Below are positions 51,001-52,342 of a DNA stretch of 64,000 nucleotides, piece after piece. Where the stretch lies: assembly GCF_036507355.1 (NCBI RefSeq), contig NZ_AP027877.1; one strand, given 5' to 3'. Made by a program: the position numbers. Origin of the DNA: Escherichia coli (lineage in GTDB: Bacteria > Pseudomonadota > Gammaproteobacteria > Enterobacterales > Enterobacteriaceae). Numbering within the stretch: position 1 is the first letter of the stretch; each line of letters begins with the position of its first letter.

Positions 51001-52342
51001 ACGTTTTAGCAGGACTGTCGTCGGTTGCCAACCATCTGCGAGCAAAGCATGGCGTTTTGTTGCGCGGGATCAGCAAGCCTAGCGGCAGTTGTTTACGCTT
51101 TTATTACAGATTTAATAAATTACCACATTTTAAGAATATCATTAATCTGTAATATATCTTTAACAATCTCAGGTTAAAAACTTTCCTGTTTTCAACGGGA
51201 CTCTCCCGCTGAATATTCGCGCGTTAATTAAAATCAGGAATGAAAATGAAAAAGAGCACTCTGGCATTAGTGGTGATGGGCATTGTGGCATCTGCATCCG
51301 TACAGGCCGCAGAAATATATAACAAAGACGGTAATAAACTGGATGTCTATGGCAAAGTTAAAGCCATGCATTATATGAGTGATAACGACAGTAAAGATGG
51401 CGACCAGAGTTATATCCGTTTTGGTTTTAAAGGCGAAACACAAATTAACGATCAACTGACTGGTTATGGTCGTTGGGAAGCAGAGTTTGCCGGTAATAAA
51501 GCAGAGAGTGATACTGCACAGCAAAAAACGCGTCTCGCTTTTGCCGGGTTGAAATATAAAGATTTGGGTTCTTTCGATTATGGTCGTAACCTGGGCGCGT
51601 TGTATGACGTGGAAGCCTGGACCGATATGTTCCCGGAATTTGGTGGCGACTCCTCGGCGCAGACCGACAACTTTATGACCAAACGCGCCAGCGGTCTGGC
51701 GACGTATCGGAACACCGACTTCTTCGGCGTTATCGATGGCCTGAACTTAACCCTGCAATATCAAGGGAAAAACGAAAACCGCGACGTTAAAAAGCAAAAC
51801 GGCGATGGCTTCGGCACGTCATTGACATATGACTTTGGCGGCAGCGATTTCGCCATTAGTGGGGCCTATACCAACTCAGATCGCACCAACGAGCAGAACC
51901 TGCAAAGCCGTGGCACAGGCAAGCGTGCAGAAGCATGGGCTACAGGTCTGAAATACGATGCCAATAATATTTATCTGGCAACTTTTTATTCTGAAACACG
52001 CAAAATGACGCCAATAACTGGCGGCTTTGCCAATAAGACACAGAACTTTGAAGCGGTCGCTCAATACCAGTTTGACTTTGGTTTGCGTCCATCGCTGGGT
52101 TATGTCTTATCGAAAGGGAAAGATATTGAAGGTATCGGTGATGAAGATCTGGTCAATTATATCGATGTCGGTGCTACATATTATTTCAACAAAAATATGT
52201 CAGCGTTTGTTGATTATAAAATCAACCAACTGGATAGCGATAACAAATTGAATATTAATAATGATGATATTGTCGCGGTTGGCATGACCTATCAGTTTTA
52301 ATGATTATTGCCGGATGTGATGCATCCGGCACATTTCACTCA

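Follow-up and report, generated by a model that had tools for sequence, protein, structure and literature searches.

The phoE unit most probably combines a promoter at which PhoB binds a proximal block at the -35 position and an inverted block farther upstream with a U-poor, REP-like hairpin shared with the convergent crl gene, with Rho acting downstream of it. We hold this composite model with considerable confidence. The phoE region is already known as a well-characterised transcription unit, for which the Pho box, PhoB binding and phosphate control were established long ago, and the additions made here are modest. The distal inverted PhoB block stands at an exact 57-bp offset in most of the Enterobacteriaceae genera sampled and not in the Erwiniaceae, and a published ChIP-seq table gives this distal box and not the classical proximal one. 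In addition, E. coli appears to have swapped the canonical bidirectional terminator of this gap for a REP-like hairpin that lacks a U-tract and is backed by Rho.

Genomic context of phoE and crl

According to the ORF listing and similarity searches, the segment of interest has the gene order proA-proB (-), phoE (+), crl (-), frsA and gpt in the window, i.e. the whole 64,000-nucleotide stretch of E. coli DNA that was analysed (contig NZ_AP027877.1). The ORF listing places proB at 49855-50958 (-) and the phoE coding sequence at 51246-52301 (+). The latter codes for a phosphoporin of 351 amino acids that is 99.7% identical to MG1655 PhoE, and over 5,300 E. coli genomes carry the phoE annotation for this gene. 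The crl coding sequence (52340-52741, -, 133 amino acids) is intact by the ORF listing and similarity searches. The two genes are convergent and are separated by a gap of 38 bp (52302-52339). A 1.9-kb query across the region was present in 5,404 of 5,426 complete E. coli genomes, and its matches carry the annotations 'phosphoporin PhoE' and 'sigma factor-binding protein Crl'.

The functional data on phoE and crl used below come from K-12 or other strains. The crl gene, unbroken in the window (52340-52741), is split by IS1 in the MG1655 reference (L001, 2330-3507), and care is therefore needed when K-12 coordinates or RNA data downstream of crl are transferred. For the first part of the window (1-25000, with the yah genes, ehaA and betTIBA), identity to the 5,426 complete E. 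coli genomes is nowhere above 98.0%, but it reaches 99.8-100% for the phoE-crl segment. This contrast indicates that the source is a strain, or a mosaic, without a close representative among the 5,426 genomes.

The proximal PhoB-binding block and the phoE promoter

A PhoB position weight matrix was derived from 58 ChIP-seq sites (Fitzgerald et al. 2023, PMC10294691, Table 1), from which the phoE site had been left out, and both strands of the whole window were scanned with it (127,966 positions). Four matches upstream of phoE ranked 2, 3, 4 and 14. The best of them corresponds to the classical phoE Pho box, ctgtaatatatctttaac (51147-51164), which is located 82-99 nt upstream of the ATG at 51246. 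In the register of the ChIP motif this box reads TGTAATATATCTTTAACA (51148-51165) and scores 15.7 bits, close to the median score of the real sites and far above chance, as the chance rate of scores of at least 15 bits is 2.3e-5 per position. The match of rank 3 (51137-51154, 15.4 bits) is the same block moved by one 11-bp repeat. The offset between these two matches shows that the proximal block, defined by the matrix and by conservation at 51137-51165 (+), has three 11-bp-phased half-sites, TATCATTAATC, TGTAATATATC and TTTAACA.

The phoE -10 hexamer, TAAAAA (51175-51180, +), was assigned from its fixed spacing from the Pho box. It starts 9 nt past the 18-bp box in the ChIP-motif register, equivalent to 10 nt in the classical register, and transcription probably starts near 51187. 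A consensus promoter scan upstream of phoE found no sigma-70 -35/-10 consensus, as expected for an activator-dependent promoter. The sequence features of the Pho-box class are all present, namely two 11-bp-phased direct repeats, a -35 position about 10 bp before the -10 hexamer and the lack of a -35 consensus. The geometry from box to -10 is that expected of a PhoB-dependent promoter in which the Pho box takes the place of the -35 element.

At low phosphate, the published phoE RNA level falls from 68,155 in the wild type to 69 when phoB is deleted (log2 change 9.9, or ~1000-fold), and a PhoB ChIP-seq peak with a score of 14 is located in the phoE/proB intergenic region of K-12 (PMC10294691). 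The phosphate-dependent induction of phoE, the loss of which had been named as the refutation of a sequence-only reading of this locus, is thus on record. PhoB was also found at phoE in K-12 by ChIP-chip, and pst mutants have raised phoE expression, 85-fold in avian-pathogenic E. coli and 7.8-fold in Citrobacter rodentium. Upon phosphate limitation, phosphorylated PhoB would bind the proximal direct-repeat block, which would substitute for the -35 element 10 bp upstream of the weak -10 hexamer, and PhoB would thereby recruit sigma-70 RNA polymerase. Tommassen and colleagues reportedly described the Pho box of phoE in the 1980s, along with an upstream element that full expression requires. The exact string CTGTAATATATCTTTAAC had no match in a full-text literature search, the reach of which stopped short of the promoter-dissection papers of the 1980s-1990s.

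The PhoB boxes of the window and of MG1655 are identical except for one position, 51140, which is C in the former and T in the latter and falls in the most upstream (third) half-site of the proximal block. This half-site reads TATCATT in the window and in Escherichia sp. E1V33, giving the 15.1-15.4 bits of the 51137-51154 match, and TATTATT in MG1655, giving 8.7 bits; two other Escherichia sequences are under the 8-bit cut-off. Given this polymorphism, strains may differ in their number of good PhoB half-sites.

The top match of the matrix in the window, TGTCACCATATCGTCACG (17.0 bits, 12291-12308, -), is located inside the pdeL (yahA) coding region. An intragenic PhoB ChIP-seq peak in yahA has been published, and the site listed for it corresponds to 12478-12495, with 3 mismatches. 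The 12291-12308 match is ~190 bp from that site and may be the real binding site in this strain.

A second, inverted PhoB-binding block

A single PhoB site had been proposed upstream of phoE from the sequence. Its proximal box is real, but a second, inverted block at 51091-51119 (-), supported by matrix scores, published ChIP sites and conservation, had been missed. This distal block contains two overlapping 18-bp matches, 51091-51108 (TGTAATAAAAGCGTAAAC, 10.4 bits, rank 14) and 51102-51119 (TTTATTAAATCTGTAATA, 12.3 bits, rank 4), and overall consists of three 11-bp-phased half-sites directed away from phoE. The sequence TGTAATAAAAGCGTAAAC is the site given for phoE/proB in the ChIP-seq table (PMC10294691), and a ChIP-chip study gives for phoE an overlapping distal site, that of the 51102-51119 match. 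The inverted block, at its 57-bp offset from the proximal one, is likewise a PhoB target and would most likely boost activation.

The centre of the ChIP-seq peak, at 260277 (~51069 in the window), is nearer to the distal block, and the motif search took 100 bp around this centre (PMC10294691). This search window is probably the reason why the table gives the distal instead of the classical proximal box. As the 100 bp leave out the proximal box, the table is no evidence against it, and for the same reason the dataset does not resolve its occupancy in vivo.

Conservation of the promoter

A species-representative genome collection was searched with a degenerate DNA pattern for the PhoE C-terminus; 47 of the 120 loci obtained are syntenic proB-phoE loci. 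These belong to the genera Escherichia, Citrobacter, Enterobacter, Lelliottia, Leclercia, Klebsiella, Kluyvera, Kosakonia, Mangrovibacter, Atlantibacter, Pantoea, Erwinia, Winslowiella and Izhakiella. In 46 of the 47 syntenic loci, a plus-strand box scoring 11 bits or more lies 92-129 nt ahead of the ATG. The candidate Pho box upstream of phoE is a sound one, though long known and not new. TAAAAA or TAAAAC follows at the fixed 9-nt spacing in 41 loci. In 31 of the 47, an inverted box of at least 8 bits, a score with a chance rate of 2.7e-4 per position, precedes the proximal box at a distance of exactly 57 bp. Among these loci, the distal inverted box occurs in all Enterobacteriaceae genera sampled except Atlantibacter, and in no Erwiniaceae. 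In Atlantibacter sp. RC6 (L068), two tandem phoE paralogues (81% and 74% identity) are found between proB and crl.

These data bear on a different reading of the promoter, according to which 51147-51164 is not a functional PhoB site and activation proceeds solely via the distal site listed in the ChIP-seq table. That the table gives TGTAATAAAAGCGTAAAC, and that the peak centre is located upstream even of this site, would agree with such a scheme, but the motif search could not have returned a proximal box that lay outside its 100 bp. Moreover, the proximal box outscores the distal one (15.7 versus 10.4 bits), is nearly invariably present at its fixed 9-nt distance from the -10 hexamer, and is kept by the Erwiniaceae and Atlantibacter, which are without any distal box. 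A site that is 96 to 79 bp upstream of the probable transcription start and faces away from it could also not replace the -35 element. Activation from the distal site alone is therefore scarcely credible, and we retain the model in which the proximal block takes the -35 position and the distal block is an additional PhoB target.

The hairpin in the phoE-crl gap

The sequence-only reading had noted one perfect 8-bp-stem hairpin in the 38-bp convergent gap, and this was confirmed. At 52310-52330, GCCGGATG(tgatg)CATCCGGC pairs perfectly over 8 bp around a 5-nt loop, and a perfect stem of at least 8 bp arose in 296 of 200,000 shuffles of the 38-mer. Upon folding, the stem-loop extends by a U-A pair to 52309-52331 and has an inner G.U pair on the plus strand. 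Its folding energy is -14.6 kcal/mol on the plus (phoE) strand and -13.4 kcal/mol on the minus (crl) strand (z = -4.8 and -4.0, respectively), and none of 200 dinucleotide shuffles folded as well. In the 10 Escherichia sequences compared, the stem is invariant and its immediate flanks vary. This invariance is compatible with constraint and says nothing on covariation.

Like an intrinsic terminator, the element has a stable GC-rich stem-loop, with 8-10 pairs, but it lacks a U-tract, as each strand has 3 U in the 9 nt past the stem; the tails read ACAUUUCAC in the phoE direction and AAUAAUCAU in the crl direction. The consensus terminator scan did not call the phoE-crl hairpin. An Rfam scan of 50800-52900 found no match to a known RNA family; the sub-threshold matches were rejected as chance, the best being alpha_tmRNA with 19.9 bits versus a gathering score of 50.

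The arms of the hairpin, GCCGGATG...ATCCGGC, correspond to the outer arms of REPs, 9 canonical copies of which are present in the window and were used for comparison. The sequence GCCGGATG occurs 17 times in the window versus ~3 expected, mostly in canonical REPs. Of the ~35-bp imperfect palindrome that defines a REP, GCCGGATGCGGCGTGAACGCCTTATCCGGCCTAC, only the outer 8 + 7 nt are matched. Nor does the hairpin belong to a dispersed multi-copy family, as a 181-bp query over it found a median of 1 place per genome. Since it has neither the U-tract of an intrinsic terminator nor the palindrome and copy number of a REP, we filed it as neither.

Elsewhere in the window, at 4945-5231 (-), four near-identical canonical REP copies 93 bp apart form a BIME-like array. 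The yahH ORF of a close relative (L128, 4899-5219), which covers the same stretch as this array, is probably an artefact of the repeats.

The gap in other genera

For comparison, 39 phoE-crl gaps were folded and the stems were cut back to closing G-C pairs. All 39 gaps contain one or more stable hairpins, although the sequences are unrelated between genera. The presence of a hairpin in every gap despite this sequence turnover points to selection for structure here, as expected of a terminator between convergent genes. The 9 nt past the stem contain 3 U each way in E. coli; for the other genera the medians are 7 and 6, with counts from trimmed stems still too low in four loci (L007, L102, L118 and L061).

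In four Citrobacter loci, the same outer 8-bp stem has a longer interior and is flanked by AAAAAAT and ATTTTG; in a fifth (L018), the stem is kept without the A and T tracts. The GC hairpins of Enterobacter, Lelliottia, Leclercia, Kluyvera, Pantoea and Winslowiella are unrelated, and most of them have A-tract and T-tract flanks. In Escherichia albertii (L002), a canonical REP, TGCCGGATGCAACGAGAACGCCTTATCCGGCCTAC, is located at the homologous spot with the same flanks. The E. albertii gap is 100 bp long versus 38 bp in E. coli, and it contains an extra hairpin with a 13-bp stem beside the REP. The E. coli phoE-crl gap thus offers a convenient natural test case for the importance of the U-tract between convergent genes.

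The 3' end of crl and Rho-dependent termination

In crl+ MG1655, Term-seq puts the end of the crl mRNA at 259042 (Adams et al. 2021, PMC7815308). This position has three entries in a table of three growth conditions and is classified as 'primary' in the 2 rows examined. With the register set from the crl stop codon, 259042 (NC_000913.3) is equivalent to 52304 (-) in the window, the 6th nt past the stem. The hairpin is therefore a 3'-end determinant of crl, with the mature end 6 nt past the stem. The same data are of little use in the opposite direction, since phoE is silent in the media used for Term-seq (PMC7815308).

Published bicyclomycin data delimit a Rho-dependent termination region in the crl direction, antisense to the 3' half of phoE (51700-52303, -). 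The bicyclomycin peak is at 259346 (~52000 in the window), ~300 nt downstream of the hairpin, and has a Rho score of 32; the 3'-end reads upstream/downstream of it number 633/31 in untreated cells and 395/624 with bicyclomycin, at the coarse resolution of 800-nt windows (PMC7815308). The RNA past the hairpin is rich in C relative to G in both directions, with C/G ratios of 1.6-2.2 at +121 to +260 in the crl direction and, in the phoE direction, of 1.4-2.0 within the first 320 nt. The bicyclomycin-induced signal antisense to phoE could also come from spurious promoters in H-NS-bound phoE and not from read-through of the hairpin.

The sequence-only reading had called the hairpin a terminator shared by phoE and crl. 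The shared hairpin stands, as does its relation to the crl 3' end at stem +6, but the lack of a U-tract, the failed terminator scan and the Rho region on the crl side put the term 'shared (intrinsic) terminator' beyond the evidence. In our model, one stable, U-tract-poor, REP-like stem-loop sets where the crl mRNA ends, 6 nt past the stem. It is most likely a terminator, albeit a weak or leaky one, that also hinders 3'-to-5' exonucleases, and Rho would stop those polymerases that read past it into untranslated, C-rich antisense RNA. The same arrangement of hairpin and Rho probably serves the phoE mRNA in the opposite direction. In its function, the hairpin would accordingly resemble either a weak intrinsic terminator or the stem-loops that protect the 3' ends of Rho-terminated transcripts. 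An end at this distance of 6 nt fits intrinsic termination and trimming equally, and crl 3'-end formation may be divided between intrinsic termination and Rho plus trimming.

Alternative explanations for the hairpin

The hairpin could instead be a true bidirectional, Rho-independent terminator for both genes. Its stable GC-rich stem speaks for this, as do a crl 3' end at a distance from the stem that is typical of intrinsic termination and the undoubted A-tract/hairpin/T-tract terminators that other genera have in this gap, in Citrobacter with the same outer 8-bp stem. The pepD hairpin, whose U-tract (UUUCAUCC) is similarly weak, still yields a strong Term-seq 3' end. This REP-like hairpin, GCCGGATGGCGTTTAATCGCCTTCCGGC, directly follows pepD at 56318-56352 (+) with the weak U-tract AGUUUCAUCC, and the strong primary pepD 3' end at 254210 is ~5 nt past its stem (PMC7815308); U-poor hairpins of this type thus do mark 3' ends in E. 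coli. On the other hand, the U content past the stem falls far behind that of the other genera on either strand, the consensus scan makes no call, and an approximate d'Aubenton-Carafa-type score, only indicative, is negative in both directions. Bicyclomycin raises the downstream 3' ends ~20-fold (PMC7815308), and we regard purely intrinsic termination in both directions as rather unlikely.

The resemblance to REPs leads to another possibility, that of a decayed REP without a termination role, which would protect the upstream mRNAs from exonucleases or be neutral and leave all termination to Rho. The REP-like arms, the excess of GCCGGATG in the window and the canonical REP of E. albertii with the same flanks point in this direction, and so do the downstream Rho region and a recent preprint that describes REPs as partly Rho-dependent terminators and mRNA stabilisers. 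The hairpin, however, has neither the REP interior nor the CTAC tail, and its stem is invariant while its flanks vary. The MG1655 annotation table, which may not list REPs, has no repeat feature here. The occurrence of the same outer stem within a canonical A/T-tract terminator in Citrobacter suggests an ancestral terminator hairpin and not a REP insertion. Overall, a decayed REP without a termination role is improbable. More speculative still is the idea that in Escherichia an ancestral A-tract/hairpin/T-tract terminator has decayed to a hairpin that lacks U-tracts, and that read-through from induced phoE, antisense into crl, acts on crl by transcriptional interference. If so, the ~1000-fold induction of phoE would bring polymerase collisions and an extra Rho load, and the Pho response would be coupled to the Crl level and hence to sigma-S activity. 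In the RNA-seq comparison of wild type and phoB deletion, crl is absent from the part of the list of significant genes that was covered; as the MG1655 used there may carry crl::IS1, this carries no weight either way (PMC10294691). We consider this coupling very improbable. The U-poor hairpin assisted by Rho remains the preferred model for this gap.

Comparison with known systems

With REP elements, the phoE-crl hairpin shares the outer arms, the location at a 3' untranslated site between convergent genes and, in E. albertii, a full REP at that very place. It differs from them in its length (21-23 nt versus about 35), in being without the CGGCGTGAACGCCTT interior and the CTAC tail, and in being single copy. 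Bidirectional intrinsic terminators resemble it in having a single stable hairpin in a short convergent gap and a 3' end a few nt past the stem, and canonical ones occupy the corresponding gap of Citrobacter, Enterobacter, Lelliottia, Kluyvera and Pantoea. The E. coli gap is unlike these in that it lacks the A-tract and T-tract and has a bicyclomycin-sensitive termination region downstream. The Rho-dependent transcripts reportedly trimmed back to a protective stem-loop (Dar and Sorek 2018) may differ from crl in that the crl 3' end may equally be due to direct termination; they have in common with it a stable hairpin at the mature 3' end and, downstream, a Rho signal with C-rich, G-poor RNA.

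The promoter, finally, is the same in kind as the PhoB-activated Pho promoters (pstS, phoA, phoB and ugpB). Common to all is an 18-bp box of two 11-bp direct repeats (CTGTCAT followed by an AT-rich 4 bp) that stands in for the -35 element, 10 bp before the -10 hexamer, together with PhoB-dependent induction and PhoB bound in vivo. The E. coli phoE box, TGTAATATATCTTTAACA, is farther from the consensus than the phoE box of other genera, TGTCATAAAACGTTCATT. The phoE promoter, itself a founding member of this class, has an inverted upstream block at a fixed 57-bp offset, unlike most Pho promoters.
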